DNA from: an uncultured Acidobacteriaceae bacterium
GTDB taxonomy: Bacteria; Acidobacteriota; Terriglobia; Terriglobales; Acidobacteriaceae
Assembly: GCA_963834075.1 (NCBI GenBank)
Contig: CAWIAH010000011.1
Location: forward strand, 476,989 to 540,988
Length of the DNA: 64,000 nucleotides
Direction: 5' to 3'
In this document: piece after piece, positions 10,611 through 61,411 of the stretch
Position numbering within the stretch: the first letter of the stretch is position 1
How the letters are laid out: each line of letters begins with the position of its first letter
The notes under the pieces: generated by a model
The model's database searches: none
Seen by the model: the letters and a program-made list of their open reading frames with translations, nothing else
Told to the model about the DNA's origin: nothing
Position numbers and translations under genes: made by a program

Positions 10611-12026
10611 ATGCATATTGCGGTTGTAGGTTCAGGGTATGTCGGATTAGTGGCGGGAGCATGCCTCGCCGATCTTGGTCACGAAGTGATCGTGGTGGAT
10701 AATGACCAGGATAAGCTGTCGGCACTTAACGCCGGCAAGGTTCCTATTCACGAACAATTCTTACCTGAACTCTTGGATCGCAACCGCGGCCATCGTCTGA
10801 CCTTTTCTGATGATCTGCAGGAGGCGGTGCGCGCCAGCGCGGCCGTTTTCATCGCGGTAGGCACGCCGCCAACGGATAAAGGGGAAGCCGATCTATCCTA
10901 CGTTGAGTCGGTGGCGCGTAGCGTGTCGGGTGCTATCAACGGATACAAAGTGGTCGTTGAAAAGAGCACTGTGCCGGTCTACACCAGCGATTGGGTGCGG
11001 AAGATCATCCTTCGCAACGCCACGCCGCCGGACTCTTTCGATGTCGCCTCTAACCCTGAATTTTTGCGCGAGGGCACCGCAGTTACGGACTTCCTCTATC
11101 CTGATCGTATTCTTTTGGGCGCCGACACCGAGCGCTGTGCGTCTGTTCTCCGTGAAATCTATTTGCCCTTGAGCAACGGCAGTTATTATCAACGCTCGGA
11201 CGCGATTCCCCGGCCGGACCGCGTTTCCATTCCTCCGGCCATCATTGTGACCAGCACTAAAAGTGCGGAGTTGATTAAACATGCTTCCAATGCGTTTTTG
11301 GCAATGAAGATTTCGTTCATTAATGCTGTAGCTTCGATCTGCGAATCCGTGGGTGCCGATGTGCGGGAGGTTTGCCAGGGTATCGGAGCCGACAGCCGCA
11401 TAGGCCCTCGTTTTCTCAATCCTGGGATCGGCTATGGAGGTTCTTGTTTTCCCAAGGACTTGATGGCCTTTCGATCGGTGGCCCGGGAATGCGGCTACGA
11501 TTTCCGCTTGCTGGATGAGGTCATGCGCATCAATGAGGAGCAGCGCCATCGCTTTCTGCGCAAAGTCCGCAACGCACTGTGGACGCTTCGTGGCAAACGG
11601 TTGGGCGTGCTCGGATTGGCCTTCAAAGGGGGCACTGACGACATTCGCGAGTCGCCGGCCATTTCGCTGGTGCAATCCCTGCTGCAGGAGGGCTGCACGA
11701 TTTCAGCCTACGACCCCGCCGCGAAGAAACGCGCTTCCGAGGTGCTGACCGGGAACGTGGAATTTGCCGACAGCGCCTACGAAGCGGCGCATGACGCGGA
11801 TGCACTGTTGATTCTCACCGAGTGGGAGGAGTTCGCGACGCTGGATTTGCCGCTTCTCCGGACACATCTTAAGTATCCCATTGTGGTGGACGGCCGGAAT
11901 CTATATCATCCTGCCACGATGGCGGCTCATGGATTCACCTATTACAGCGTGGGCCGTTCAACGGCTCCAGTGGAAGCACCCGTCACTATGCCTGTGGTCG
12001 CGCCGAGGAATGTCAAGACGTCATGA
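10611..12026 (+). CDS. ugd: UDP-glucose 6-dehydrogenase
   Basis: N-terminal Rossmann fold [26 protein letters not shown]. Catalytic-Cys region [14 protein letters not shown]-terminal UDP-binding [26 protein letters not shown] precedes the ATG. Confidence 0.9.
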
Positions 12027-45145: not shown

Positions 45146-46962
45146 GAATCGAGGAGAAGCCGGTGGATCAATTCTAAGCTAAGGATCTTGTGAATTGCGG
45201 TGGTGTAATTCAACCCTCCGGCCAGGTGGCCTTTGACGACAGTCTCCACCCCGCTTCGGTTTAGGTACGGCCTTGCCAGAGTGCGCGGATCGAGCAGCAT
45301 TTCGCGCACGTAGGCCTTGAGGTAGTCCCGGTACCACACGCGGAAATGATAGAACTTGTGGCGTCCCAGAAAAATCCGTTCCAGATGAAGTGGTGCGAAG
45401 GCGTGATCGATCCGCGCTACCCACTGCGGCATCCCGTAGTCGTAGGCGTACTCCGATTTGAAGGTGAGTTCAAGATAATTGCGGGTGAGGCCGCCAAGGA
45501 ATGTGTGCTCCTGGCCTCCGTAGCCGCGATCGGTGCGCAACTGGCGCAACGCGGTGCTGCCATCGGCGATCAGCTGCAACGAGATATCGTTGTTGGTCAG
45601 CACCGAAGGCGGCGCCTGAAATACGGTCTGGACCAATTCATTATCCAGATACGGAGAGCGCAGGGAAAGTTGCGTCTCTTCGAGCGCTAACAGGCCGTAG
45701 TGATGCCAGGGCGCCTGGCGGAAGACCGCGAACGACAGTGGATGCCCTTGGATAATTCCCTGGTAAGTCTGGCCCGCCAACTGAACCTGCAAAATCAAGT
45801 CGGAGCTCAGCAGCCCGGACTGTGGCTGCCCCGCCTTGAAGGCCCGCACCCGGCGCAGCACTTCCCCGCCATAGTTTCCGGTCATTCGTACCGGCGCAAT
45901 CTGCGCCGCCCGCCGGTTGACATACAAGTCCGGCGAATGGCTGACATCCACGCAGCCGTCGGTCAGATAAACCGTGCGCTCGGCGTATTTGGGAAAAGAC
46001 GAAAGAAATTCTTGCCCCACCGGAATGGTTTCATGCGTCTGCCCGCAGATTTGCGCTACCTGGCGCGCCATCAGAACATCCTGGCAGTCGCGGAACATCC
46101 CGCCAAACGAGTAGCACGGCAGGGTGCCCGCCGCGGCCTTGCTCCAGGCCATGATCATGCGCGAGTCGAGTCCGCCGGTCAGCGATACGCCGATGGGTTG
46201 GCTCGATTGAAAGTAACGCGGCAGGTTGCGAGTGAAGACATCCCGCAGCCGCTCGTAATATCTTTCCGGCCGGAGGATTTCCTGCTCTTCCCACTGGCGC
46301 GGTTGAAAATAGCTTGCCCGGCTGGTCAGCGTCGCGTTGCGGAACTCCCAGGCTGACGCGGGAGGCAATATCTCGATGCCCTGAAACAGCGTCCGGTTCT
46401 CCAGCACACAACCGCAGGCTACAAATTCTCCCAGGCCGCGCGGGTCCACGCGGCGCAGCTCCGGGCAAACCTCGAGAATCGCCTTGGCTTCGGCCGCGAA
46501 GTAAAACGCATCATTTGACTGGTGATAGTAGACCCGGTGAATTCCGTAACGGTCGTTGAACAGCGTCGCGCTGCCCTTGGCGCGGTCGGTGAGCAAACCT
46601 TGAAACCGGCCATTGAGTTTGCTGAAGAAATCCCGGTCTTCTTCATACCAATGCACCAGATATTCCGGCCCATGGCTGGGCATCGCATGCCCGCGCTGCT
46701 GCAAATGCGCCACCGTTCCAGGTTCCGGAAATTCTTCGCCCGAGAACAGCAGAACCGCGTTGCCGTTTTCGTTGCGCAAGGGCATCCCGGCCCCGAATCC
46801 ACCCTTGCGCAACATCCATCCGACGTAAACACCGGCGGCCTCATCGGCCCAGGTCCCGCATTCGTAAAACGACTCATGCTGCATGGTTGCCAGCATGCGG
46901 TGGAGTTCCATCTCCGCCTGGGCGCGCGGCAATTTGGTGATAAGTCCTGCGAGTCCTGGCAT
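45142..46962 (-). CDS. Asparagine synthetase B-like amidotransferase homologue lacking the N-terminal catalytic Cys
   Basis: Synthetase-domain PP-loop VSLTGGLDSRMI is present. The N-terminal Ntn-like domain begins MPGLAGL instead of MCG. Confidence 0.75.
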   Translation of the reverse strand: MPGLAGLITKLPRAQAEMELHRMLATMQHESFYECGTWADEAAGVYVGWMLRKGGFGAGMPLRNENGNAVLLFSGEEFPEPGTVAHLQQRGHAMPSHGPEYLVHWYEEDRDFFSKLNGRFQGLLTDRAKGSATLFNDRYGIHRVYYHQSNDAFYFAAEAKAILEVCPELRRVDPRGLGEFVACGCVLENRTLFQGIEILPPASAWEFRNATLTSRASYFQPRQWEEQEILRPERYYERLRDVFTRNLPRYFQSSQPIGVSLTGGLDSRMIMAWSKAAAGTLPCYSFGGMFRDCQDVLMARQVAQICGQTHETIPVGQEFLSSFPKYAERTVYLTDGCVDVSHSPDLYVNRRAAQIAPVRMTGNYGGEVLRRVRAFKAGQPQSGLLSSDLILQVQLAGQTYQGIIQGHPLSFAVFRQAPWHHYGLLALEETQLSLRSPYLDNELVQTVFQAPPSVLTNNDISLQLIADGSTALRQLRTDRGYGGQEHTFLGGLTRNYLELTFKSEYAYDYGMPQWVARIDHAFAPLHLERIFLGRHKFYHFRVWYRDYLKAYVREMLLDPRTLARPYLNRSGVETVVKGHLAGGLNYTTAIHKILSLELIHRLLLDS

Positions 46963-46968
46963 GGCGGT

Positions 46969-47904
46969 TTAGGAGGCTTCCGTCGCGGACTGCAGTTTCC
47001 GATTGTTCCAGGCGTTGCGCAGGTTGCGCACTTTCGCGACCAGCGCGGGAGGAATCTGGTCGGCCAGTTTGCGATGCAGGCCATAGCGGTACCCGATGCG
47101 CCCCGCCACCGTCAATGGGACGTAATAGCGCGGCAGATCCATCTTCTGAAAGGCATTCCGCTCCTTGAATTCGGCCACACTGTCTTTTTCTTTTTTGCCG
47201 TACGTGAAGTTGGCGTAGACCAGATACGAAACATTTCTCTCGGTACAGGAACGTACCGCCTGCACCACCAGTCCGTTAGTGGGCGCTTTATCGCGGTCCT
47301 TGATGGTGGAGACGATGTTCATCAGGCCGGCCTGGGTCCGGCTCTGATCCCATACCAGCTTGACGAAACCGATCATGCGCTCGCCCAGAAACGCTCCAAT
47401 AAAAACGCTGGTATCGAGATACGTCGCCTCTTCGCGGCGCACCGTCTCAATGTCTTTTCCGTAGTGGGTAAAGCGGCGGCCCTGCCGCACCGGGCATTCG
47501 TTGTAGATCTCCCAAATACCGCGCACCAGGGTGTCATCGAATGGCACCTCGCGGATGGTGACGCCCTTTTTCTCCGACTGCTTGGCCTTGTTGCGCGCCT
47601 TGAAGCCGATTTGTTTGTTCCACCAGTTGTCGAAAGTGGTCAGCGGAATCGCCGCCAGATTGTCCATCTCCATGGGATAGGAATATTTCGGGTGGCTATC
47701 GGGCAGCTTCTGCAGGAAGGTAAACAGGTCAATCCGCGCCCCCGATTTCTTCAGTCCGGCGATCATCGCCTCCGGATCTTCCACGAAGTGATACTTGTCG
47801 GCGTCCAGACGGGCGACTCGCAACAACCGTCCTTGCACCTGAATTTGTTGACCGCAAACCGTAATCAATCGTTTTCCCCTTGGATGGTAATCGTGCTTCG
47901 GCAA
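46969..47904 (-). CDS. Hypothetical protein with GNAT/FemAB-like C-terminal half
   Basis: 311 aa, TTG start. The C-terminal region FIGAFLGERMIGFVKLVWDQSRTQAGLMNIVSTIKDRDKAPTNGLVVQAVRSCTERNVSYLVY resembles an acyl-CoA N-acyltransferase core. The N-terminal half was not recognised. Confidence 0.45.
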   Translation of the reverse strand: MPKHDYHPRGKRLITVCGQQIQVQGRLLRVARLDADKYHFVEDPEAMIAGLKKSGARIDLFTFLQKLPDSHPKYSYPMEMDNLAAIPLTTFDNWWNKQIGFKARNKAKQSEKKGVTIREVPFDDTLVRGIWEIYNECPVRQGRRFTHYGKDIETVRREEATYLDTSVFIGAFLGERMIGFVKLVWDQSRTQAGLMNIVSTIKDRDKAPTNGLVVQAVRSCTERNVSYLVYANFTYGKKEKDSVAEFKERNAFQKMDLPRYYVPLTVAGRIGYRYGLHRKLADQIPPALVAKVRNLRNAWNNRKLQSATEAS

Positions 47905-47934
47905 CCCGACCCTATGGCGCCGATGTTTAGATTC

Positions 47935-48858
47935 TTAGCTCTCGGTGACGTACTGCTCGCGTACCGGATTAATCCCCAGCAATGCCAGCAACGCTCCCAG
48001 ATGATCGCAAAGCGGCACCAGCAGCTGCATGAAATATTGCTGTCCCAGCAGCCAAGCAAATGGCAGGGCCAGCGCATAGGCCGGCACGGCCACCAGCGAT
48101 CGCGCGATCTGCCGGGCGCCGTAGGTGGGATGCAGGACCGCCGTCGCCCCCCGCAACAATGCCCGCTTCATCATAATGGTGCGGTCCCAGCGGCTGGGCG
48201 GAACCACCTCGTATACCACGGCCTCATCGCACCAAATGAAGACGTGTCCCTTTTCGGTCTTTCGCCGGAAAAAATCCTGGTCTTCGCCGGCACGAAATTC
48301 TGGGCGGAAGGGCATTTCGTCCCCGGCAAACAACTCTTTCTTGAGCAGCAAATTGCCGGTCCGGCTCTCCCACCACGGCATGACAAATCCCGTCGGGTGC
48401 GTGGGACGCTCGTAGAAGTTGCCTTTCACCACCCACGGCGGCGGCGGCACGTCGAAGTGGCGCTTAACCGGCCCCAGCACTCCGTCCACGTTGTCGCGCA
48501 TGCAGGTCTTAAACAGGTGCAGCAGCCACTGCGGCGCGGGAAATTCGTCATCGTCAATGAACACGACAAAATCGCCGTCGGAATTTTCGATCGCCTTGTT
48601 TCTGGCCAGCGCAATATTCTGCCGCGGCTCGCTGCAATAAAGCACCGGCACCGGCGCCTTCGCGGCGAATTCCATGACCGCGGCTTCGGCCGAACGCATC
48701 TGGTCGTTGTCAACCATCACGATCGAATAGCTAAATAACCCCTCGGTTTCCTGCTCCGCCAGGCGATCAAACAACCGCGGCAGGAAATGCGGCCGTTTGT
48801 ACGTACACACACACACGGTGAGGCGGTTGGTCAAGGGAGTTGTAGGCGAAGAAGTCAT
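47935..48858 (-). CDS. Glycosyltransferase family 2
   Basis: LTVCVCTYKRPHFLPRLFDRLAEQ...SIVMVDNDQ...VVFIDDDEFP carries the GT-A fold DxD motif. Confidence 0.85.
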   Translation of the reverse strand: MTSSPTTPLTNRLTVCVCTYKRPHFLPRLFDRLAEQETEGLFSYSIVMVDNDQMRSAEAAVMEFAAKAPVPVLYCSEPRQNIALARNKAIENSDGDFVVFIDDDEFPAPQWLLHLFKTCMRDNVDGVLGPVKRHFDVPPPPWVVKGNFYERPTHPTGFVMPWWESRTGNLLLKKELFAGDEMPFRPEFRAGEDQDFFRRKTEKGHVFIWCDEAVVYEVVPPSRWDRTIMMKRALLRGATAVLHPTYGARQIARSLVAVPAYALALPFAWLLGQQYFMQLLVPLCDHLGALLALLGINPVREQYVTES

Positions 48859-48915
48859 GCGGAACGGGTGAAGGACAGGAAATCCTGTTTTTTCTATGAT
48901 TATGATACGGCAGGT

Positions 48916-49743
48916 TTAAGCGCGCGGCGCGTATCCTGCGGCAATCGCAATCTCGCCGGTCCAGCGCAGGATTTCCCCGCCCGCCAGAAAGCGGTATTCG
49001 TCTGGATTGGGTGGATGGGTCTCTACCTCGACTACATGGTCCTGCGCCAGGGAAAAGATCCGTTCCAGGCGGGCTTTCGGCTCGAGCGGCGGCAGCGAAA
49101 AGAAGAAATCGGTCAACCGGTGCCGCCGGCCTAACATGCCATCCACCACGCGGCGGTAAAAGCGGTTGGCCGCGCTCTTCTCTCCGCGGGCAAAGGAGAA
49201 ATTCCGCCGCACCCGCGTCCCAGCCGGCAAAAGCCGCGCCAGCAATACATTGGCGCACAGATGCATGTGATGATGGCCGTCGATGCGATCTGGAGGCTTG
49301 CCGTAAAGACGCCGGTATTCGTCCAGTTGCGCGGTGACAACGTAATCGAACGAACGCACTAATCCCGGATGAAACACCGTGGTTCCCAGCCGATGCCGCG
49401 ACAGATAACGTGCCACTCGCTGCTGGTGGCGCAAAAGTGCCGGTGGGCTGTCGGAAGGCGAAAAGGCGGTGGTCAGATTCAGGTGCAGTCCGGCATCGAT
49501 GCCCTCGGCCAGCGCAACCCCTGCGGACGCCTCGGAGTCCTCCATAAAAACCATTGCGCTCACCGAAGACACGGTCTTAGCGCGCACACAATCCAGGATT
49601 TTCTGGCTGGTAACCGGGTCACGTCCCCAATCATCGGCATTCAGGATCAGCCGTCCCACGCCGGCAAGCCGCGCCTGTGAATTTTCGCCTGCCGCGCTTG
49701 CCGGCATAGTTTGAACCGATGATGGGACGCTAATGGCGTTCAA
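48916..49743 (-). CDS. YdjC/ChbG-family carbohydrate deacetylase
   Basis: RLILNADDWGRDPVTSQKILDC...VSSVSAMV...AGLHLNLT...IDGHHHMH are YdjC-like blocks. Start is TTG 49743 or ATG 49707. Confidence 0.75.
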   Translation of the reverse strand: MNAISVPSSVQTMPASAAGENSQARLAGVGRLILNADDWGRDPVTSQKILDCVRAKTVSSVSAMVFMEDSEASAGVALAEGIDAGLHLNLTTAFSPSDSPPALLRHQQRVARYLSRHRLGTTVFHPGLVRSFDYVVTAQLDEYRRLYGKPPDRIDGHHHMHLCANVLLARLLPAGTRVRRNFSFARGEKSAANRFYRRVVDGMLGRRHRLTDFFFSLPPLEPKARLERIFSLAQDHVVEVETHPPNPDEYRFLAGGEILRWTGEIAIAAGYAPRA

Positions 49744-49767
49744 AGACGTTATCCGTTCAGGACGGGC

Positions 49768-50745
49768 CTAACGGCCTTGTCCCTTGCCTACTGCGACTGC
49801 GGATCGTGGATCCCCTGCCGCAGCCGCCTGAATCTTGCCGGACGAAGATGCCGGTTGGCCTGTCCTATTGTGCGATTTGGAGAAGAACCTCTTCAACCGT
49901 TGCATCTGTTCCCGCCGGTAAAAAGCTACCAACTCCGGGGTTACCGGCCGCGGCTTGCGCCGGACGGTATCCCACAAGAAGCCCCCCATGACCATCAGGC
50001 CGCCAACGAATAGCGGCGGCTGCGTCATCTGCCGTGCCATACGGCACAGCTCCCACGCGGGATGATTTCCGACCGAATAATCCTTCGCGCCGTTTTTCCA
50101 GCGGGCTTTCAAAATTCCCTGCTGCGCCGTCCCCATGGCGCGGGCGTGCTGGCTCACCTTCTCAGTGAAAGTCCGGGTCTTCCAGCCCTTCATGCGTGAA
50201 GTAATCACCGCGATGTGGTCAATGCAGCCGCCCTTGACCGGAACATAGCCGCCAATTGCCTCAAAGCATTCCCGGCGGAAGAGCTGGCAGGCTCCCGAGA
50301 CATGCTCGATGCTGACAAAGCGATAGTCGTAAATCGAGCCCTCGCCCTCCGAGAATGGCGTGCCCACCAGTCCCAGCGAGGGATCTTCGGCCAGCTTCTG
50401 CAGCAGAAATTCGAAGTAACCCTGGTCCACCGAGATGTCGGCATCCAGGCTGCCGATTACCTGATAGTCAACCCCCTTCATACGCGCATAGCCGGCATTG
50501 AACGCGTGCACTTTTCCGGCAAAGTGGCGCTCTTGTCTTTCCGGCGTGCGCACCAGTTCGATCCACGGGTGCTGCGCCGCATATTTGAGCACCAGCTCAT
50601 CGGTGCCGTCGGTCGAGCCATCGCTGACCACCACCCACTTGACCGGCTTCACCGTCTGCGCCGCAATCGATTGCAGCGTCAGTTCGATGAAAGCTGCCTC
50701 GTTGCGGGCCGGGGTAATCAAAACGTATCTGGGAAGGGTTGCCAT
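49768..50745 (-). CDS. Glycosyltransferase family 2
   Basis: Start MATLPRYVLITPARNEAAFIELTLQSIAAQT...WVVVSDGSTDGTDELV...GSLDADIS. The ATG overlaps the upstream stop (TAATG). Confidence 0.85.
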   Translation of the reverse strand: MATLPRYVLITPARNEAAFIELTLQSIAAQTVKPVKWVVVSDGSTDGTDELVLKYAAQHPWIELVRTPERQERHFAGKVHAFNAGYARMKGVDYQVIGSLDADISVDQGYFEFLLQKLAEDPSLGLVGTPFSEGEGSIYDYRFVSIEHVSGACQLFRRECFEAIGGYVPVKGGCIDHIAVITSRMKGWKTRTFTEKVSQHARAMGTAQQGILKARWKNGAKDYSVGNHPAWELCRMARQMTQPPLFVGGLMVMGGFLWDTVRRKPRPVTPELVAFYRREQMQRLKRFFSKSHNRTGQPASSSGKIQAAAAGDPRSAVAVGKGQGR

Positions 50746-51959
50746 TAGCGGACTCCTGCTGTCGCGGCCGCGGGTTCGGTGTAGACCGGTTCGCCCGCAC
50801 CTTTTTCTTCGCACAAAAGCATGGTCAACGCCAGGAACATCCAGGCCTGCGTCCAGCGCATGTAGGAAGTTTTGATGGTGACCGTGCGCAAGATACGATA
50901 GTAAAAGTAGCCATCTTTTTCATCCCACATGTGCTTCATCGCCCAATTGAACGTGGGCCGGGCCAAAGCCAGCGGGTTCGGCTCCAAATCCTTGAACTCG
51001 AGCGGCGTGATTATGCTCTGCGCCACGCAGTGTGTATCCAACGGATAGCTGCGGTCGTGGAAGTATTTTACCGAGCCATCGGGAAGATAGAAGTTATCCT
51101 TGAAGAACTTATAGCCGCGGCGGATGCGTTCTTCAAACTCCGTGATGCCCCCGTACTGATCGATGGCGCGCAATCCACTGAGGTTGAAGCCGGTGTGAAA
51201 ATTATCGATCCAGCGCTGCGTCTCATGCTCGCCATACCACCACGAGCCATCTTCCAGTTGCTTCGAGGCGGAGAAGCGCGCTCCGGTCAACGCCGTCTTT
51301 AGATACTTTTCCTCGCCCGTGTGCTTATAAATACGGCAGAGCAGCCCGGAGGCGAGGAAATTCGCGTTGTGGGTGGTTCCCCGCAAACCGGGCAGCGGAT
51401 AGCTGAAGCCGGCGCGGTCGCCTTCATTCCAGAAGAGTACGTCGCGGATATAATCTGCCGCGCTCTTTGCCATGGTGAAGCAGCGTTCGCCGTGACCATG
51501 GTCGTAGGCATCCAGCAGCGCATTGGCGGAAAAGGCGGTGCACACCAGGTTCGGAGTCCAGCGCGGCACCAGCACTCCCCGGGTCTGCCAGGGAAAGTTG
51601 TATCCCCAGCACCAGTAATCGTGATTGGACGAGCGCAACTCGATCAGCCGCTCGATCATCTTTTCGGCGTATCCCTCCTCGACGCCGATGCCGACCTTGG
51701 CCAGTTTCAGGAAAGAAGTAAGAAAAAGACCCAGGCCCTTGGGATTCGCCGTCTTGGGAATCAGCAGCGCCCCACGCACATTCACCGGGCTGCGCTTCAG
51801 GAACTGCGTCATCACCAGGCGAAGCAGCTTGAAATCGAGGAAAGGCAGCGCCTCGAAAATCTTGCTGTTGAGCGCGTCGTAGGGCTCGTAGCCGGCGAAG
51901 TCTTCCTTGCGACAGTAATCCAAAAATTTGAGTAGTGCGCTTTCGACGTTGTATTCCAT
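50745..51959 (-). CDS. Conserved hypothetical protein, probably alpha/alpha-toroid (six-hairpin-like) fold; function unknown
   Basis: 404 aa and soluble. Repeated aromatic/Gly blocks: GYEPYDALNS, WCWGYNFPWQTRGVLVPRWTPNLVCTAF, THNANFLASGLL, DGSWWYGE, FHTGFNLSGL. No family could be named with confidence. Confidence 0.4.
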   Translation of the reverse strand: MEYNVESALLKFLDYCRKEDFAGYEPYDALNSKIFEALPFLDFKLLRLVMTQFLKRSPVNVRGALLIPKTANPKGLGLFLTSFLKLAKVGIGVEEGYAEKMIERLIELRSSNHDYWCWGYNFPWQTRGVLVPRWTPNLVCTAFSANALLDAYDHGHGERCFTMAKSAADYIRDVLFWNEGDRAGFSYPLPGLRGTTHNANFLASGLLCRIYKHTGEEKYLKTALTGARFSASKQLEDGSWWYGEHETQRWIDNFHTGFNLSGLRAIDQYGGITEFEERIRRGYKFFKDNFYLPDGSVKYFHDRSYPLDTHCVAQSIITPLEFKDLEPNPLALARPTFNWAMKHMWDEKDGYFYYRILRTVTIKTSYMRWTQAWMFLALTMLLCEEKGAGEPVYTEPAAATAGVR

Positions 51960-52068
51960 TACGATCTCAAACCCTCCATAACTCTTGCGTCGCTCCCAGG
52001 GTTATTGCAACTGCCAAGCGGCGGGCGCGATGTGCTGCATCGCGATCCCGGATGTTAAGCCGTCTTTC

Positions 52069-53319
52069 CTAAGAAGAGACCTGTCCCCGGGCCAACCCGG
52101 CCGGGACCTGCTGGGCCAGAATCTCGACAATCCGCTCCGCCGCGCGGCCATCCCAATATTTGGGAGTCGGCCTGCTGTTGTTTGTACGGCGTAGCTGCCG
52201 CCGGATGGCCAGCCGTATTCCTTCGCGCCGCACGCCCGCCAATGCGTTGGTCCCTTCATCGATTGTCACCGGCCGCTCCGTATTCTCACGCACCGTGACG
52301 CAGGGCAGTCCTAATCCGGTGGTTTCTTCCTGAATTCCGCCGGAGTCGGTGACAACCAGACGCGCATTTTTCATCAGGCAAAGAAAGTCCAGATAACCCT
52401 GCGGATCGATCATGCGGATCGCGCCGGGCTGATTCTGTTCCGAACCGTCTTCCGGTGCGGCCGGCGGGTTGGAGCAAAAATAGGTTTGCAGGCCGTTTTC
52501 CTGAATTTGCTTTTGTGTCCGCGGGTGCGCCGGAAAGATGATTGGCATCTCGGCCGCCAATTCGCTCAGCCCCACCAGGATCTCGCCGAAAGCATCTTTG
52601 TCATCGACATTGGCGGGACGATGGAGAGTCAGCAGCGCATATGCCTGCGGGGTGCGGGAATCGTCCGCGTCCAGCCCAGGCTCCTTCGGCCCCGGCTTCA
52701 TGAGTCCAAGCCGCTCAAGTAGCGTCGACTGGTCGGCTCTCGGCCGGGCGTCGAACAACGAATCGATCATCGTGTTGCCAACCAAAAACATCCGCTCCCG
52801 CGCAATTCCTTCATTTTCGAGATTGCGCAACCCGCTCTCTTCGGTGACAAATAAGATGTCCGACAAATGATCCGTCAAGACCCGGTTGATCTCCTCCGGC
52901 ATGCTGCGGTCAAAGGAGCGCAATCCCGCCTCAACGTGAGCAATCAGCGGCCGGCGTTCCGAGGGGTAGACGACTTTTGCCGCCACCAGCGCACACGCGA
53001 TCGTCGAATTCACGTCCCCGGCGACCATCACCACGTCCGGAGCCTCTTTGAGCAGCACCGGCTCAAAGCGCTTCATGATTTCCGCTGTCTGCACCACGTG
53101 GGAAGCTGAACCCACGCCCAGAAAAACATCGGGTGCGGGCAAGTTCAAATCGGCAAAGAAGGCATCCGACATGCGCGCGTCATAATGCTGCCCGGTGTGC
53201 ACCAGCACGGAACTGATGACTTCCTGTTTCGCGGTCTGGTTGTGCCGCGCCATCGCCTTCAAAATAGGTGCTGCTTTCATGAAGTTCGGGCGCGCGCCGA
53301 CTACGATCATCGCCTTCAT
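52069..53319 (-). CDS. wecB: UDP-N-acetylglucosamine 2-epimerase (non-hydrolysing), WecB/WbpI-like
   Basis: MKAMIVVGARPNFMKAAPI, HTGQHYD, MVAGDVNST, HVEAGLRSFDRSMPEEINR and VVTDSGGIQEETT are present. The gene carries two low-complexity insertions. Confidence 0.88.
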   Translation of the reverse strand: MKAMIVVGARPNFMKAAPILKAMARHNQTAKQEVISSVLVHTGQHYDARMSDAFFADLNLPAPDVFLGVGSASHVVQTAEIMKRFEPVLLKEAPDVVMVAGDVNSTIACALVAAKVVYPSERRPLIAHVEAGLRSFDRSMPEEINRVLTDHLSDILFVTEESGLRNLENEGIARERMFLVGNTMIDSLFDARPRADQSTLLERLGLMKPGPKEPGLDADDSRTPQAYALLTLHRPANVDDKDAFGEILVGLSELAAEMPIIFPAHPRTQKQIQENGLQTYFCSNPPAAPEDGSEQNQPGAIRMIDPQGYLDFLCLMKNARLVVTDSGGIQEETTGLGLPCVTVRENTERPVTIDEGTNALAGVRREGIRLAIRRQLRRTNNSRPTPKYWDGRAAERIVEILAQQVPAGLARGQVSS

Positions 53320-53452
53320 TGAGCCGACCCGAATGCAGGAATGTGATTTACGAGTACGATGAAGAAAACCCTAGCAGTTTGCGATGCAATTTGTCTTCCC
53401 GACACGGTGGAAAATTTGGAGGAGGGCGCGGGATCGAATCGAAGATTGCCGC

Positions 53453-54666
53453 CTAGCGCGCACCCACCTCGGCAACGCGTCCTGCCTGGGTGAGTTGCAT
53501 GACTTTTTCGGCTACCCGGCGGGCCTGCTCAAAGGTCAGTTGCGGGAACATCGGCAGCGAAACGATCTCCGGCGCAACCCGTTCGGTCACCGGAAAATCT
53601 CCTGTCTTGTAGCCCATGCCGGCATACGCCTTTTGCTGGTGCAGCGGAATCGGATAATGGATCGCCGTGGCAATGCCTGCGGCACTCAAATCCGCCTGCA
53701 GTTTCTCGCGGTGCTGTACCCGCACCACGTACAAATGATAGACCGCCTTTGACCAGGATGGCTCCTGCGGCAGCGCCAGTTCCGTAGCGCCTTCGAACAA
53801 ACGCGAATATTCCTTGGCCAGGCCACGCCGTTTTTCATTCCAGCCTTCCAGCTTCTTCAACTTGGCGTGCAGAATGCCGGCCTGAATCGTATCCAGGCGG
53901 CCGTTGTAGCCTTCCACATCGTGATAGTACTTCTTGCTCTGCCCATGATCGCGCAGCATGCGGATCGTGCTTGGCCACCGCCTCGTCGTTGGTAGTCACC
54001 GCCCCGGCTTCGCCGCAGGCTCCCAGATTTTTCCCGGGATAGAAGCTGAAGGCCGCCGCCCGGCCCATCGAGCCCGCGCTGGTGCCAGCTGCTTGTCTTT
54101 CGCCGAAAAATATTTCGCGCCATGCGCCTGGCAGGATCTTCCACCACCATCAAACCATAGCTGTCCGCCAGTTCCAGAATGCGGTCCATGTCCGCCATCT
54201 GCCCGTAAAGATGGACCGGCACGATCGCGGTCACGGGCGGTTCGGTCCCCAGATGCATCAGCTTGCCGGAGGCATCGCGATGGCACTCCTCCGCCAGAAA
54301 GCGTGACAGTTTGGCGGGATCGAGGTTGTAGGTGCTCTCGTCGATATCCACGAACACCGGCTGCCCACCCGCCTGCGAAATCGCTTCCGTGGTGGCAATG
54401 AAGGTATTGGGCACGGTGATCACCAGATCGCCAGACTTCACCCCCGAAGCCATTAGCGCGAAACGCACGGCGTCGGTACCGTTGGCTACGCCGATGCAAT
54501 ACTTGGTATCGCAGAACTGGGCGAAATCGCGCTCAAATTCCTCGAGCATGCTGCCGCCGATGAAGTGCGCCTGCCGGATGCAGTCGCGGAATATTTCAAC
54601 CAACTCCGCTTCCATTTCCACATGCGGAGTAACCAGATCCAGAAATGGAATCATGCCTTGTGCCAT
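53453..54666 (-). pseudogene. DegT/DnrJ/EryC1-type PLP aminotransferase (WbpE-like), readable only across about 4 frame breaks
   Basis: The protein is spread over four frames:
- Frame 1: MAQGMIPFLDLVTPH...GVANGTDAVRFAL...LMVVED.
- Frame 2: [15 protein letters not shown].
- Frame 3: [36 protein letters not shown].
- Frame 4: [33 protein letters not shown]...
Concatenated, these give a normal-length DegT protein. Confidence 0.8.
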
Positions 54667-54667
54667 A

Positions 54668-55249
54668 TTATGATTTTCTCCCCTTGGTTGCAGTGTTCAC
54701 TTGCTTGCCGCCATCACCCTTTTTTCCGCCATCCGGTTTCTTCCCGTCCTGCAAGGACCGCAAGACTCTTGCCGGATTTCCCGCCACAATGCTGTCCGCC
54801 GGCACATCTTTGGTGACCACGCTGCCCGCGCCCACCAGCGCATTCTCGCCGATCGTGAGATTGGCAAAGAATGGTCGCTCCGCTGACCAATGGATGCTCC
54901 CTTTTTCACCCGGGTCGTCTCCACCTTCCAGTCGGCTTCGGTCTGCAACTGCCCGTCGCCGGTGGTGGCCCGCGGATAGGAGTCGTTGATGAAAGTCACG
55001 CCATGGCCGACGAAGACGTTGTCTTCGATCTCACGCCTTCGCAGACAAAAGTATGGCTGGAGATCTTGCAATTCTTGCCCGACGCTGGCGTTCTTCTGAA
55101 TCTCGACGAAGGCGCCGATCTTTGTGTTCGTCGCCGATCGCGCATCCATAGAGATTGATGAATTTCGAAAGCTTCACGCCTTCGCCCAGTTTCACGTCCG
55201 GGGCGATGGAGAGGAATTGGTCCGGGGCCTGGCCCTGCTTTGCGCTCAT
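54668..55249 (-). pseudogene. Hexapeptide-repeat N-acetyltransferase (WbpD-like), readable only across about 5 frame breaks
   Basis: The conserved segments lie in alternating frames: MSAKQGQAPDQFLSIAPDVKLGEGVKLSKFINLYGCAIGDE | TKIGAFVEIQKNASVG | KNCKISSHTFVCEGV | [22 protein letters not shown]...KGASIG | SGATILC | [34 protein letters not shown]. Confidence 0.8.
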
Positions 55250-55287
55250 GGATTGTCCTGAAGAATTTCCGATGGAATTTGTTGTGA

Positions 55288-56295
55288 CTAGAGCTTTACC
55301 AGCTTGCCGCGATCTTTCAACGACTCTTCCGCCGCCTCGAGCATCCGCACCACCCGCAAGCCGGCCACGCCGTCGTTCAATGGGAGCGCGGTTGGCGGCG
55401 ATGCAGTCCACGAAGTGGCTGGTCTCCTGCCGCAGCGCCTCGGTCTGTTCGATCTGCGGCGCCCACATGTCGCCCGAGCGGTAGCTGACCAGCAGGTCGT
55501 AGACGCCCTTGCGCTGTTCTTCATCGACACGCCCTTGTCATAGACTTTGATCTTCTCGTCGGCTTCCAGATCGTTCCACACCAGCATTTTCTTCTCGCCG
55601 CCGATCAGCGTGGTCCGCACCTTCACCGGCGAAAGCCAGTTGACATTGATGTGCGCCATGACGTTGTCGGGGAAATAAATGGTGATGAAGGCGATATCCA
55701 CATGGCCGTTCAGGTGCTTTTGGCCGGTGGCGACGATGGCATCCGGCTCTTTCGTGAATCAGGTAGTCCATGATGGAAAGATCGTGCGGCGCCAGATCCC
55801 AGATGACGTTGATATCGTGCTGGAACAATCCCAGGTTGACGCGCGTGGAGTCGTAGTAATAAGAGATTGCCCAGCACGCCCTCTTCCACCAGTTGCCGGA
55901 TCTTGCTGCACCGCGCCGGTGAACAGGAAGGTGTGGTCCACCATGATCTGCAGCTTTTTCTTGGCGGCCAGTTCAATCAGCTCTTCCGCCTGCGCCACGT
56001 TGGCGGTGAAGGGCTTCTCCACAAAAATATGTTTGCCGTTGTTGAGCGCGGTCTTGGCCAGCTCATAGTGCGTCCAGACCGGAGTCACCACCGCAATGAC
56101 GTCAATCTCGGGCGAGGTGAGCAGTTCATCGCAGTCCTTGGTAACCTTCGCCTGCGGGAATGCCTGCCTGGCCCGGTTCAGGCAATCGGTCCGCTTGTCG
56201 GTGATTGCGACCACCTCTGAGATGCCGGCATGATTAAAATTCCGGGCCACATTCGGCCCCCAATAGCCATACCCGATGATTCCAACTTTGATCAT
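55288..56295 (-). pseudogene. Gfo/Idh/MocA-family NAD-dependent sugar 3-dehydrogenase (WbpB-like), readable only across about 5 frame breaks
   Basis: The conserved segments lie in alternating frames: MIKVGIIGYGYWGPNVARNF...EKPFTANVAQAEELIELAAKKKLQIMVDHTFLFTGAVQ | KIRQLVEEGVLGNL | YYYDSTRVNLGLFQHDINVIWDLAPHDLSIMDYLI | EPDAIVATGQKHLNGHVDIAFITIYFPDNVMAHINVNWLSPVKVR...KVYDKGV | DEEQRKGVYDLLVSYRSGDMWAPQIEQTEALRQETSHFVDCIAANRAP | LNDGVAGLRVVRMLEAAEESLKDRGKLVKL. Confidence 0.8.
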
Positions 56296-56446
56296 GGTAA
56301 ACGCAGCCTTTCCGGAAACCCGGGACCTGCCGGGAGTGATTCGGGGAATAAATTCTGGGGGAGGGCTACCGGGCGCACATCCACGGTGCAGCGGTTGTTA
56401 TCGCCGCACACCTAGCACGCCTTACACAGAACCAACCGGGAGGGAA

Positions 56447-57589
56447 TCAGTACGCTCCGTCACCCGACACCACAGCCGCCGGGGTACGGAGAAGAATCTT
56501 TACGTCCAGCCAAAGCGACTGCTTGCGGGCATACTGCAAGTCCAGCCGCACCATCTCGTCAAATTTCGTCCGGCTGCGTCCGTTGACCTGCCACAGGCCG
56601 GTAATTCCCGGACGCGCTTCGAGCAACCGCCGGCGATGCCACACATCGTAAGCTTCCACTTCATAGGGCAGTGGAGGCCGTGGACCTACCAGCGACATCT
56701 CGCCAATCAGCACATTGAAGAACTGCGGAAGCTCATCCAGACTGGTGCGGCGCAAGATCTTGCCCACCGCCGTAACCCGCGGATCATCGGTGATCTTGAA
56801 CACTCCATCGCGCCCCTTCTGGTCGGCTTTGCCGGCGATGAGCTTGCGCACATACTCTTTGTGAATGTCGGCGCTGTTGTTCACATACATGGAACGAAAC
56901 TTAAGAAAGGTGAAGCGCTGGCCATACTGACCAATGCGCGGTTGCCGGAACAGGACCGGGCCCTTCGACGACAACTTCACCGCCACTGCGATCAGCAGAA
57001 ACAACGGAGAAAACACCACGACGGCCACCGTGGCGCCAGCAATGTCCATCAGGCGCTTGAAACCACGAGCCACCCGCTTCCCTCCCTCTTCCTGATGCAG
57101 ATCAGGATAGAGCGCGGAATCCTGCGGATGAGTCGGCGTCTCTTCACCCCACTCCTCGGGAAAAAGATGGAACGAAATATTGATCTGGCTGAACTGTTCG
57201 AGCGTCAGGCTGTCGCGCAAAGCGCTGCTCACCCGCAGCAGCATGGTGCCGAGAATGGATTTCTTGAGGTCCACCGCGATCTCGGTGAACATCACACCCA
57301 CGACCGCATCATTCTTGTACCAGCCGGTGATATCGGTGTCGCGGGTGGATAGGGCCAGCGCCGAAAAAATATTTTGCAGAACCCGGCTATTTTTCCCGCC
57401 GGGTGAAAACCGTCCGGTATCGAGCAGCATGAGCAGAAAAGGCTTGCCTGATCGCTCGGCGCGTTTGCGCTCCAGACAGACCATGCGATGAAAATGCTCC
57501 TCCGGCAATACCTCAAGACTTTGCGTCCGCGGGCTTTGCTTTGCCGGAACCGCCGGTTCCACTTTGCTTTCAAGCTCTGAAACCTTCAC
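56447..57589 (-). CDS. Priming polyprenyl-phosphate sugar-phosphate transferase (Bac_transf family) with N-terminal degenerate GGDEF-like domain
   Basis: The C-terminal catalytic domain follows a single TM helix ([24 protein letters not shown]): [25 protein letters not shown]...[43 protein letters not shown]...[14 protein letters not shown]. The N-terminal ~120 aa align to a GGDEF fold. The preferred start is GTG 57589 with AGGAGGAAGGC upstream. The ORF is open to 57703. Confidence 0.8.
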
Positions 57590-57784
57590 GCCTTCCTCCT
57601 CTTTCCGCCTCTCATGCCAACGCGCACGAGAGGGTGCACCCCGACCACTCGTCGAAAAATTGTATGAGCAAGTTGCGATTGCGAGACGACAACCCGCAAT
57701 CACTTTTTAAAGGAGGGAGGGCTTGCTTTTTTGCGATGCCTCTACGTGGAGTCACCGCTGTGTTAACCATCTTGCAAAACTCGT

Positions 57785-58774
57785 TTATTCTACCGCAGCC
57801 GGACTGTAACGGGAATAATAATCCTCTTCATCATTACCCGTCGAGTTATTAACCACTAATCCTAACAAGCGGGAGCGTTCGATGGCCCCCAGGCCGCGTT
57901 GCAGCGCCTGCCGTTCGGTCCGCCCCGCCCGTACCACCAACAGGACCCCATCGGCAAATCTTGCCCAAACACTGGTATCGGCCAAGGGAAGTACCGGCGG
58001 CGAATCAATCACGATCCAGTCAAAGCGCAGCGCCAGCAAATCCAATAAGTCGGCTAGTTTGCCGGATTGCATTAGTTCGAGCGGGTTTTCCGGCGGATGG
58101 CCGGCCGGCATCAGCCAGAATCCCGGGCCATCCAAATGATAGATATTGCTGACCGTCCGGCTCTTGGACTGCAGCCATTCGCTCAAGCCCGCTGGCCGGC
58201 TACCGCCGAAAAGTCCGGCTTGGGTGGGGCGGCGCAGATCGCCTTCAAGCAGCAACACCTTCTGTTGTTTGCGCCTCGCCAGAGTCGACGCAAGATTGGC
58301 GGTCACCAGGCTTTTGCCTTCCCCGGAAAGGGTGCTGGTGACCAGCAGTTTCTTCAAGCAGCGCTCCTGCTGCAACCGCCGCAACCGTACCCCTAGAAAG
58401 CGGAACTTTTCCGCTCCCAGGCTTTCCTTTTCGGTGAGCGATACCAGGCGACTGGTCGCGGTAGGCGCAACCTGCACGTTGGGACAATCGGCCAACTGAA
58501 AATCGCCTTTGATCCCTTCGGTCCTGGGCTCAGTCCTGGGCTCGGCGGCTGCCGAATTGGAGAAGCTGGACGCAGCCGGTTTCGAATCAGTAATCGGGCG
58601 TTCGGCAGTTTGCTCGCCGCTGACTCTGGTCTCGCGAATCTTGGGTCCGGCAGCCAGCTCGGAGGTCTCCGCCTTTTGCGACTCGTCCAGAATGGCGACT
58701 GACGGCGGCTCGGGGAAGGTGAACTCCACCCGCTCCGACTCCGACCTTTGCAACGCTTCAAAGATGCGGCTCAT
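57785..58774 (-). CDS. Chain-length-determinant tyrosine autokinase-like ATPase (BY-kinase catalytic subunit, EpsG-like)
   Basis: MSRIFEALQRSE N-terminus. Walker A VTSTLSGEGKSLVTANLA. Walker A' VLLLEGDLRRP. Walker B FDWIVIDSPPVLP. C-terminal Tyr cluster EEDYYSRYS. Confidence 0.78.
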   Translation of the reverse strand: MSRIFEALQRSESERVEFTFPEPPSVAILDESQKAETSELAAGPKIRETRVSGEQTAERPITDSKPAASSFSNSAAAEPRTEPRTEGIKGDFQLADCPNVQVAPTATSRLVSLTEKESLGAEKFRFLGVRLRRLQQERCLKKLLVTSTLSGEGKSLVTANLASTLARRKQQKVLLLEGDLRRPTQAGLFGGSRPAGLSEWLQSKSRTVSNIYHLDGPGFWLMPAGHPPENPLELMQSGKLADLLDLLALRFDWIVIDSPPVLPLADTSVWARFADGVLLVVRAGRTERQALQRGLGAIERSRLLGLVVNNSTGNDEEDYYSRYSPAAVE

Positions 58775-59799
58775 TTGCGCCTGCCTTCGGGTTCGACCGC
58801 CAGCGCAGCCTCAGCATCGTTCGACTTGATATTCTGCAGATAATCATGCAACTGCAATAGGGTTTTCACCGCCTGCCAAACCTCCTCACTGCTCTCCGCC
58901 ACCGCCTGTCCGAACTGCCCGTCGGCTCGGCTCGGGCCGCCATTGCCATTGCTCGGGCTGCTGTTTCCCGGTCCGCGGCGAACCACGCCCAGACGGAAAT
59001 CCGCCGCCACTTCATCCACAATCTCCGGCTCGACCGAAGCCGTCTGCCGCGCAAATGCCGTGATCAGTGCATTCTCACAAACCGTATTGATCAGCCGCGG
59101 AATCCCCCGCGAGTGACGATACACCTTGGCAATGGTATTCGGCGGAAAAAGAGTTTCGACGTTCGTCGTAGCGCCTGCCAGTTGCAGGCGGCGCTGGATG
59201 TAGCCACGTGTCTCTTCGAGATTCAGGGGCTCCAGTTGCGAGCGCAAGGCGATGCGCTGCTTCAGTTGCCGCAACTCCATCGAATCCAGCTTTTCGTCGA
59301 GTTCGGGTTGGCCCACCAGCAGAATCTGCAGCAGTTTTTCCTGCGCCGTTTCGAGGTTGGTCAGCAGGCGAATCTCTTCGAGCACCGCCACCGGCAGATG
59401 ATGCGCCTCGTCCACTACCAGCACGGTGGTCAGTTTCTGCTGATGCCGCGAAATCAGGTAGCTGCTCAGCTCCAGCAGCAGATCGCTTTTGCTCTTGCCC
59501 GATGCCGGCAACCCGAAATCCCCGGCCACATATTGCAGAAATTCCAGCGGGGTCAGCAGGCTATTGAAGACGTAAGCGTAGGAGACGCTGCGCCGGTTGA
59601 GCAATTCGAGCAGGCAGCGCACCAGCAGCGTCTTGCCAGTACCCACTTCGCCGGTCATGACCACGAAACCTTTGTGCCGCCGCACCCCATAGTAGAGCGC
59701 CGCCAGCGCCTCGTTGTGTCGCCGCGTGGGAAACAGGAATGAGGGATCGGGGGTGATCTCGAATGGGTTACGCTTCAGATGGTAAAAAGTTTTGTACAT
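58771..59799 (-). CDS. AAA ATPase of the ExeA-like / PEP-CTERM-locus secretion-ATPase type
   Basis: FYHLKRNPFEITPDPSFLFPTRRHNEALAAL..., Walker A MTGEVGTGKT and Walker B VLVVDEAH. ATGA overlap with the downstream kinase gene. Confidence 0.8.
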   Translation of the reverse strand: MYKTFYHLKRNPFEITPDPSFLFPTRRHNEALAALYYGVRRHKGFVVMTGEVGTGKTLLVRCLLELLNRRSVSYAYVFNSLLTPLEFLQYVAGDFGLPASGKSKSDLLLELSSYLISRHQQKLTTVLVVDEAHHLPVAVLEEIRLLTNLETAQEKLLQILLVGQPELDEKLDSMELRQLKQRIALRSQLEPLNLEETRGYIQRRLQLAGATTNVETLFPPNTIAKVYRHSRGIPRLINTVCENALITAFARQTASVEPEIVDEVAADFRLGVVRRGPGNSSPSNGNGGPSRADGQFGQAVAESSEEVWQAVKTLLQLHDYLQNIKSNDAEAALAVEPEGRRK

Positions 59800-59806
59800 A
59801 CATTTA

Positions 59807-61411
59807 TCAGCCGCGCAAAAAACTCAAGGCCACGCCCATCAGGACCACCATGCTCATGATTCCGCCAAGCGCCAACTCCAGGCGGAAACGGCGATGCCGC
59901 GAGCCTTCCTCTTCGGCGGTAACCAGCGGCGGAATCTCCGCCATAATCTCCGCCGAAACCAGCTTCTCGAACTCGGTCTCATCGTAAATCCGCGGATCCA
60001 GAAACTCCGCAATCATGGCCACCACAAAGCCTACCGCGAGTCCTGCCGCCAGACCGCCCAGGCTGTAGAGAAAACGCTTGGGAGCCGAAGGCCGGGTGGG
60101 CAGGCTGGCCGGATCCTGGGTGCGGAACTGCAAGCCTTCCTGGCTCTTGCCCAAATTTGCCGCCAGCTCCGCGGCGTGCTTCTGCGCCAATAGCTTCTCG
60201 TAATCTTTCTGCGACTGATCCTGATCGCGGGTCAAATCGGCCAGATCCTGCTCGCGTGCCGGGGCGCTATTGAGGCGAATTTGATATTGATTGATCTGGG
60301 CCGTCAGGCCATCGATGGCACGCTGACGGTTGGCGATATCGATGGCGTTGGCTTTTAATTGACTGCCCACCTCCATCGCCGCTGCTGCAGTCGGGTTGCT
60401 CAAGTCGACCGTAACCGGGGTATCGTGCCCCGCAGCCTGGCTGGCTTGCGCTCGCAGCTCCGCTACCCGTTGCGCCCGCCGGCTCTCGGTTTCGGCGATC
60501 TGTTCCCTTTTCTTTTTCACGTCAGGATGCTGATCGGTGTACTTGGAGAGCAGATCGGAGAGGTCATCTTTTTCTTTGGCTAACTCTGCGTCGATGGCGG
60601 ACAGTCCCGACGGGGTCGGATCTCCGGGGTTCTTCGCGGAGCCGGGAGCAAGCGATTTGTACTGGGTCTGCAAAGACTCCAGCAACGCTTTGTGCTGCTC
60701 CGCCTGCCCTAACTGATCCTGTTCGGCCTGTAACTGTCCTTGCAAGCCTTGCAGGATCTGAAGATTGCTTTGCATCTGCGTAGGCAGCTCTCCCATGTGC
60801 CGGTCTTTGAAGTCGCGGACCTTGGCGTCCTGAGCGTCCATTTTGGCGCGCGCGTCTTCGAGTTGCGCGTCCAGAAACTTCACCGTATTGGTGTCACTCT
60901 GCGCCTTCATCTCCAGACTTTGACTGGTAAGCATTTCCCCCAGTTCGGCCGTGACTTCCTGCGCCGCCTGCGGCGTATCGGCCTCGAAAGAAATGTCAAA
61001 GGAACTGACATCACTCCTGCCCGGCGAGCGCACCGGATCAATCAGCAGATCTTTATTCATTTTGGCCACCAGCGCATCGTCGCCCATGTGCTTGCCGGGA
61101 TAAGGATTGAAGCGCTGGGCAAGACTGAGCATTACGCTGCGGCTACGGAGCTGTGTCGTGATCCCTTCCAGCCGGTCCTGTAAATCGTTGGCCGGATTGG
61201 CCCCCGAAATACTTTCCGAAACCGCGGGCTGCAATACCAGGATCAGCGTGCTGGAGCGATAGACCGAGGGCATCATCCAGCTGGCAGTCCAGATCAAACC
61301 CCATACCACAAACAGTGGCACCACCACATACCAGCGGCGCCGCACCATGAGGTCGCGGTATTTCTTCAGATCGAGTGGCGTCTGTGCCGGTTCGTTATAT
61401 TCGTCTGCCAT
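59807..61411 (-). CDS. wzz: Polysaccharide chain-length determinant (Wzz/GumC-like, PCP family)
   Basis: N-terminal Wzz block YRDLMVRRRWYVVVPLFVVWGLIWTASWMMPSVYRSSTLILV. Long coiled-coil periplasmic region. C-terminal TM helix (LGGLAAGLAVGFVVAMIAEF). Confidence 0.82.
   Translation of the reverse strand: MADEYNEPAQTPLDLKKYRDLMVRRRWYVVVPLFVVWGLIWTASWMMPSVYRSSTLILVLQPAVSESISGANPANDLQDRLEGITTQLRSRSVMLSLAQRFNPYPGKHMGDDALVAKMNKDLLIDPVRSPGRSDVSSFDISFEADTPQAAQEVTAELGEMLTSQSLEMKAQSDTNTVKFLDAQLEDARAKMDAQDAKVRDFKDRHMGELPTQMQSNLQILQGLQGQLQAEQDQLGQAEQHKALLESLQTQYKSLAPGSAKNPGDPTPSGLSAIDAELAKEKDDLSDLLSKYTDQHPDVKKKREQIAETESRRAQRVAELRAQASQAAGHDTPVTVDLSNPTAAAAMEVGSQLKANAIDIANRQRAIDGLTAQINQYQIRLNSAPAREQDLADLTRDQDQSQKDYEKLLAQKHAAELAANLGKSQEGLQFRTQDPASLPTRPSAPKRFLYSLGGLAAGLAVGFVVAMIAEFLDPRIYDETEFEKLVSAEIMAEIPPLVTAEEEGSRHRRFRLELALGGIMSMVVLMGVALSFLRG

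Follow-up and report, generated by a model that had tools for sequence, protein, structure and literature searches.

Frame breaks in a predicted diacetamido-sugar cassette of an acidobacterial metagenome assembly are very probably a local consensus artefact

Three frame-broken genes of a predicted sugar cassette

We analysed a stretch of 64,000 nucleotides (hereafter the window; contig CAWIAH010000011.1, forward-strand positions 476,989 to 540,988) from the assembly GCA_963834075.1 of an uncultured Acidobacteriaceae bacterium, and describe here three adjacent minus-strand genes that are interrupted by single-base frame breaks. The genes correspond to a WbpB-like sugar-nucleotide dehydrogenase, a WbpD/WlbB-like N-acetyltransferase and a WbpE-like aminotransferase, and are adjoined by intact genes for a WecB-type epimerase and a polyprenyl glycosylphosphotransferase (Table 1). 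No long open reading frame (ORF) is present on either strand in the region from 53453 to 56295, as judged from the ORF listing and from three-frame translation, and each of the three proteins can be followed in full only by hopping between frames.

The breaks were placed by MAFFT alignment of the DNA with the loci of two same-genus genomes, G004 and G008, and refined against a near-identical locus from another metagenome assembly (described below). The first alignment, at 80-81% DNA identity, revealed 14 one-base indels that occur in the window alone. Uncompensated breaks in the deposited sequence thus number 14, consisting of 11 extra bases and three missing ones. A preliminary description made from the sequence alone had proposed about 14 single-base breaks in the three genes, at least 10 of them insertions and two or three of them deletions; the alignment of the relatives bears this out, with every break lying within 15 nucleotides of the position originally listed. 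The aminotransferase gene additionally contains a compensating pair, an extra base near 54243 and a missing base near 54235, which lie 8 nucleotides apart and convert a conserved Asn-Arg-Pro to Glu-Pro-Pro without breaking the frame. This pair had gone unseen because it restores the frame. With it, the indels total 16 (12 bases extra in the window and four missing). As had also been proposed, no stop codon created by substitution was found in the corrected frames when the tract was compared with the near-identical locus. GC content and GC skew across the patch showed nothing unusual, and no second copy of the cassette was found in the genome.

To the extent that they can be read from the intact alleles, the three proteins belong to the Pfam families GFO_IDH_MocA, Hexapep/LbH and DegT_DnrJ_EryC1, respectively, and the neighbouring epimerase to Epimerase_2. 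The aminotransferase matched WbpE (PDB 3nu7) with an E-value of 5e-70, yet is nearer to PDB 7b0d and to QdtB. The acetyltransferase matched PDB 3mqg (E = 1e-18), with a fold of the left-handed-beta-helix class, and some of its homologues are named 'UDP-2-acetamido-3-amino-2,3-dideoxy-glucuronate N-acetyltransferase' by their sources. For the dehydrogenase, the top structure match was 7bvj and the best NCBIfam model was UDP-GlcNAc 3-dehydrogenase, with a score under the cut-off. No NCBIfam equivalog was above cut-off for the dehydrogenase, aminotransferase or acetyltransferase, whereas the epimerase passes the wecB cut-off. The WbpB, WbpD, WbpE and WecB names given in the preliminary description therefore hold at the family level, by Pfam, PDB and the wecB cut-off.

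In its enzyme classes and in their adjacency, the cassette resembles WbpB/WbpE/WbpD of Pseudomonas aeruginosa and WlbA/WlbC/WlbB of Bordetella together with a WbpI/WecB epimerase. A reasonable reading is that the genes encode a predicted 3-dehydrogenase, 3-aminotransferase and N-acetyltransferase route to a 2,3-diacetamido sugar of either the glucose or the glucuronate series. In contrast to the route of P. aeruginosa, this cassette has no adjoining gene of the WbpA type, and its first three enzymes stay below the cut-offs of the NCBIfam equivalogs. No WbpA-type 6-dehydrogenase was found within the cassette, although PF03721 genes are present elsewhere in the genome. The nearest of these, at 10611-12026 of the window and 41 kb from the cassette, encodes a 471-residue protein of the UDP-glucose/GDP-mannose dehydrogenase family (204 bits) and is the nearest candidate for the WbpA-type step. 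The 192-residue acetyltransferase has a Lys/Gly-rich COOH-terminal tail of approximately 15-20 residues, encoded at 54668-54740; those same-genus relatives whose acetyltransferase has 173-178 residues are without such a tail.

The divergent tract in independent assemblies and relatives

Independent assemblies were sought with the intact epimerase as the first anchor and the glycosylphosphotransferase as the second. A look-up of the exact epimerase protein returned contig_21504 (740 kb) of another metagenome assembly, ENA ERZ25039522, as well as three short-read (Logan) contigs. All three sugar genes are intact in the ENA contig (locus L011; 334, 192 and 403 residues), which has none of the 16 indels. 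Over the 13.26 kb compared, corresponding to 46069-59327 of the window, the two sequences differ by 53 substitutions and 16 one-base indels. A tract of 2.0 kb contains 52 of these substitutions and all of the indels, and the remaining 11.2 kb of flank (46069-53893 and 55908-59327), with a single substitution, is 99.99% identical. Such clustering of the indels is not due to chance: with an even spread over the 13.26 kb, the probability of all 16 lying within 2.0 kb would be approximately 8e-14.

The borders of the tract lie inside genes. The tract does not include the first 388 nucleotides of the dehydrogenase gene or the last 441 nucleotides of the aminotransferase gene, and both stretches match the intact alleles with 100% identity. 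These 829 nucleotides of the broken genes thus show no difference, where approximately 28 would be expected at the rate of the tract, and the lesion therefore belongs to the tract and not to the genes. Intact cassettes were also found in G004 and G008, with a dehydrogenase of 334-335 residues and an aminotransferase of 403 residues; the acetyltransferase has 178 residues in G008, and in G004 the ORF listed for it has 245 residues counted from an upstream GTG.

Short-read contigs of the same region end at the edges of the cassette. One of them, L012, extends as far as 54037; it is without the extra base near 53966 and shows the other allele at 53894. The ends of L013 and L014 are at 53957 and 53921. 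From the opposite side, L017 agrees with the window at every one of 5300 nucleotides and stops at 55918, and L018 stops at 55920, which is the upstream edge of the tract; these contigs carry the glycosylphosphotransferase gene. Of the five short-read runs found, four (ERR10755941, ERR10755945, ERR11523669 and ERR11594406) gave contigs that break at one or the other cassette edge, and the contig from the fifth (ERR12035940, L016) ends approximately 60 nucleotides upstream of the dehydrogenase start. This pattern points to branching and polymorphism at the cassette in several samples, with several haplotypes co-existing in natural populations.

Homologue searches, which included a fragment query for partial genes, yielded no intact copy of the window's own allele in public data closer than 94-97% protein identity. 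In clusters formed at 90% identity, the intact dehydrogenase and acetyltransferase are singletons, and the cluster of the aminotransferase adds one JGI protein of 401 residues. The closest relative with readable DNA (L019) is approximately 84% identical.

Counting by codon gave 57 substitutions in the tract, five of which arise only because BLAST gaps the compensating pair as +1/-1, leaving approximately 52. The 57 differences comprise 31 at third, 18 at first and eight at second codon positions; 31 are synonymous and 26 non-synonymous (the latter including the five gap artefacts), and the ratio of transitions to transversions is 31:26. At an overall level of approximately 2.6% substitutions, third positions hold more than their share (28 of 52, p = 0.002), so that part of the variation in the tract is genuine allelic difference. 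In the aminotransferase part of the tract, indels are as numerous as substitutions.

Relative to the nearest intact allele, that of the ENA contig, the extra bases are five A, three C, two T and two G. The preliminary description had read the inserted base as mostly C, a pattern that was produced by the placement of gaps. Its observation that most indels lie outside homopolymers was sound: only five of the 16 (31%) match a neighbouring base, compared with 46% and 30% in two other patches of the genome and approximately 44% by chance, and inspection of the contexts showed about 10 of the 12 extra bases to be no duplicate of a neighbour. Natural one-base indels concentrate in homopolymer runs. 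The lack of neighbour matching above chance argues against replication slippage, and the indels look like random residual noise. We also considered that a consensus drawn from mixed haplotypes might have written both alleles of a single-nucleotide polymorphism (SNP) side by side. Several sites fit this idea by eye, but it was not supported, given that indels were no nearer to substitutions than expected by chance (0.25 observed versus 0.13 by chance with n = 16, and 0.29 versus 0.36 and 0.50 versus 0.44).

The ENA contig has a patch of its own at the position corresponding to 60218-60821 of the window (L015 2770-3372), where five substitutions and five one-base indels split a 534-residue GNVR-type chain-length gene into parts of 380 and 137 residues. 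The window is intact there and identical to the short-read contigs L016 and L017. Patches of this kind are thus a property of this kind of assembly.

In a further same-genus genome, G003 (L004 1468-2680), the aminotransferase of the same cassette is in fragments of 231, 207 and 110 residues, with at least three indels, and the dehydrogenase (334 residues) and acetyltransferase (183 residues) are intact. An artefact of the same type, again at this polymorphic locus, probably accounts for these breaks.

Frame-break clusters elsewhere in the genome

The genome that contains the window (G000) is a metagenome-assembled genome of 4.64 Mb in 13 contigs, with an estimated completeness of 90%. The names of homologues of its proteins point to Terriglobales (Acidobacteriota). 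Frame was tracked along it with an in-frame hexamer model trained on 1019 long ORFs and a Viterbi pass, and a cluster was defined as at least four same-strand frame switches spaced by no more than 500 nucleotides. In the window, the tracker recovers the intact flanking genes as well as the frame hops of the cassette, and it sees no other cluster. Genome-wide it identified 69 clusters on 10 of the 13 contigs. The initial statement that breaks are confined to three genes with intact flanks is therefore correct for the window but not for the genome. As a control, the tracker was applied to three regions (the cassette and the two patches described below) as they stand in the other assemblies, and gave four ordinary gene-boundary junctions for each, compared with 13, 18 and 27 junctions in G000.

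Read-through translations of 15 other clusters were recognisable proteins. In four of them the Pfam matches continue over the junctions, for a class-I tRNA synthetase, MraY with a MurF COOH-terminus, ribosomal protein S1 and pyruvate kinase. The tRNA-synt_1 match, isoleucyl-type by its motifs, covers profile positions 1-411 of 414 in one stretch and spans nine of 10 frame junctions. Breaks are likewise seen in genes for MetH, acetyl-CoA synthetase, PitA, a phosphoketolase and an RND pump, and in those for an NtrC-like regulator together with its histidine kinase. By tblastn, neither the isoleucyl-tRNA-synthetase-like gene nor MraY was found to have a second copy in the genome. With the sole copies of these two genes broken, the breaks cannot be real in a living cell.

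Two larger patches were compared with other assemblies in the same way. For the MetH tract, an intact gene of 1174 residues is present in the same ENA assembly that supplied the intact cassette, from which G000 differs by approximately 450 substitutions and approximately 45 indel events, with flanks that are near-identical. Within the gene itself, third codon positions account for 79% of substitutions and synonymous changes for 78%, alongside 28 indels. For the C1 tract, two long-read assemblies have an intact NtrC-like gene of 471 residues and an intact histidine kinase gene of 621 residues, the latter being intact also in the short-read contigs L029 and L030. Here G000 shows approximately 660 substitutions and approximately 150 indels, and its 10-kb flank is nearly identical. 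Each indel detected against the first comparator recurs against three others (L028-L030), so that G000 is the odd one out. The substitutions in the NtrC-like gene are 84% synonymous, alongside 19 indels. Judged from these sequences, the alleles that underlie the larger tracts evolved as working genes under strong purifying selection. Such selection in combination with 19-28 indels per gene is not an outcome of natural decay.

Table 1 Coordinates of the cassette, its frame breaks and related features. Positions are those of the window unless a contig of G000 (C1 to C11) is given.
Feature	Position	Strand	Description
WecB-type UDP-N-acetylglucosamine 2-epimerase	52069-53319	minus	intact; 416 aa; TIGR00236 289.5 bits (cut-off 210)
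DegT/DnrJ/EryC1-type aminotransferase (WbpE-like)	53453-54666	minus	403 aa when intact; 4 uncompensated breaks and a compensating pair
Aminotransferase breaks	extra base near 54088, 54080, 53966; missing base near 54137	minus	
Hexapeptide-repeat N-acetyltransferase (WbpD/WlbB-like)	54668-55249	minus	192 aa when intact; 5 breaks; entirely within the tract
Acetyltransferase breaks	extra base near 55131, 55076, 54886, 54864; missing base near 55032	minus	
GFO/IDH/MocA sugar-nucleotide dehydrogenase (WbpB-like)	55288-56295	minus	334 aa when intact; 5 frame breaks
Dehydrogenase breaks	extra base near 55907, 55860, 55754, 55380; missing base near 55513	minus	
Polyprenyl glycosylphosphotransferase (Bac_transf)	56447-57589	minus	intact; 380 aa as called elsewhere
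Poor or divergent consensus tract	53894-55907		2.0 kb; 52 substitutions and 16 one-base indels relative to the ENA contig (L011)
Isoleucyl-tRNA-synthetase-like gene cluster	C5:120-123 kb		
MraY cluster	C10:221-224 kb		
MetH tract	C11:566972-573021		intact 1174-aa MetH in the same ENA assembly (ERZ25039522)
C1 tract	C1:315-321.8 kb		NtrC-like gene and histidine kinase
Example frame-break clusters in G000	C5:120657-122490, C10:222378-223557, C3:106890-108468, C3:629655-630945, C11:567855-570333, C11:408568-412515, C1:315228-318156		

Origin of the frame breaks

The preliminary description had offered two explanations for the breaks, a local artefact of the consensus and a very recent, indel-driven inactivation of one sugar branch of the exopolysaccharide (EPS). 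The findings favour the former. Because independent assemblies are intact, the borders of the tract ignore gene boundaries and some 69 similar patches include essential single-copy genes, we consider it highly likely that the frame breaks are a local artefact of the consensus, in a tract where strains diverge and polishing was poor, and not lesions in the organism's DNA. The three sugar genes would accordingly be intact in the cell, and the breaks are almost certainly not a biological feature. According to this explanation, most of G000 would be virtually identical to other assemblies from the same population, and in dozens of short tracts G000 would follow a different, diverged haplotype that is probably in the minority. 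With few or mixed reads under the consensus of such tracts, accuracy may have been left at roughly 97-99%, giving scattered one-base insertions and deletions at approximately 0.7-2% and probably some false substitutions, whereas regions common to all strains would have been polished to near perfection. The tract at 53894-55907 would be one such case, which happens to coincide with three neighbouring sugar-modification genes of an EPS locus. The technical cause would be low effective read depth, or a mixture of haplotypes, during long-read consensus building and polishing.

Comparable errors are known from other assemblies. Flye merges strains of approximately 98.6% identity into a single consensus, and indels that remain at lower depth or without polishing lead to frameshifts and missing marker genes (PMC8302730); in one large soil project, Nanopore-only assemblies received a single round of Medaka (PMC12313526). 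The tracts described here resemble those of strain-collapsed long-read metagenome assemblies (Flye-type, with limited polishing), in that one-base indels truncate ORFs and errors occur only where depth is low or co-occurring strains diverge. Contig names in the Flye style ('contig_N') are used in the other assemblies that we found. The residual errors usual for Nanopore reads are linked to homopolymers. The present patches differ from this usual residue in that their indels are not homopolymer-linked and the errors are sharply patchy and not diffuse.

Several observations weigh against an artefact. The ratio of non-synonymous to synonymous substitution rates (dN/dS) in the tract is roughly 0.26, a value that relaxed selection would also yield and that is far above the natural one for the gene, given that the part of the dehydrogenase gene within the tract is 84% identical in DNA and 97% identical in protein to that of the relative L019. 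The tract substitutions are also less clearly of a functional-allele type than are those of the larger tracts, although the raised non-synonymous share suggests a mixture of false substitutions with true SNPs. In addition, the intact copies come from very close relatives and not demonstrably from the same clone as the window's strain.

A real and recent inactivation, in which approximately 16 one-base indels in three genes would have abolished the diacetamido-sugar branch of the EPS, is an alternative that we regard as highly improbable. In its favour, the breaks are present in the deposited sequence, variation is common among EPS and O-antigen loci and inactivation sometimes occurs there, the tract has a raised dN/dS, and the intact copies are those of close relatives and not demonstrably of the window's own strain. 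Reportedly, O-antigen genes of Yersinia pestis have been inactivated naturally by frameshifts in comparison with Y. pseudotuberculosis, and that cluster is similar to the present one in that adjacent sugar genes are broken by small indels and their neighbours are intact. In cases of the Y. pestis type, however, lesions are said to recur in many isolates, to affect dispensable genes only and to be accompanied by other signs of pseudogenes, whereas here independent assemblies are intact, the borders cut genes and similar patches lie in essential genes. Decay of whole genes also does not fit gene ends that are identical to the intact allele outside the tract. The corrected frames contain no nonsense substitution, and the extra bases, unlike slippage mutations, mostly do not duplicate a neighbour. 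All other assemblies are intact, and like patches break the sole isoleucyl-tRNA-synthetase-like gene, MraY and many housekeeping genes. Inactivation of the sugar branch was thus not supported.

Sharp borders, a substitution level of approximately 2.6%, the excess of third positions and the breaking of short-read contigs at the tract edges would all agree with import of the tract by homologous recombination from a related lineage with a decaying pseudogene cassette, in which case both borders and indels would be real. This seems very improbable to us, since the same story would be needed for approximately 69 tracts including essential genes, the larger tracts are under strong purifying selection and yet filled with indels, and the decayed donor allele was not found among more than 8000 homologues. 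We give an even slighter chance to the broader proposal that the tracts are real DNA of a soil acidobacterium sub-population with dozens of tracts of substitutions and non-homopolymer +1/-1 indels. If they were, they might have arisen, for example, by error-prone break repair or by recombination with damaged or relic DNA, and the lineage would truly lack the diacetamido-sugar branch. Finally, expression of the genes despite the breaks, through programmed frameshifting, transcript editing or quadruplet decoding, has a negligible probability in our estimation. The corrected frames still resemble functional proteins, but nothing else speaks for recoding; the 16 sites show neither a slippery motif nor a shared context, bases are missing at some of them and extra at others, and the assemblies of close relatives encode the same proteins in plain frames.

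With a consensus artefact as the most probable origin, the three sugar genes should be treated as probably intact, and no loss of the branch or change in EPS composition should be deduced from the record. The earlier view that the predicted EPS composition changes under either explanation fails if the breaks are errors, in which case the annotation alone is affected. The main value of the finding is to caution about the quality of a genome record in which gene calls are locally unreliable. Given that G000 is apparently a species representative, its approximately 69 error patches will bias pseudogene counts, completeness estimates and metabolic reconstructions. The cassette and the other tracts are nevertheless polymorphic in the natural population, which is ordinary for surface-polysaccharide loci.

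Two minor observations concern the start of the window. An IS5-like element at 25-777 shows frame switches near 360, 540 and 777, and a further cluster of four switches lies approximately 700 nucleotides upstream of the window (C11:475947-476286).

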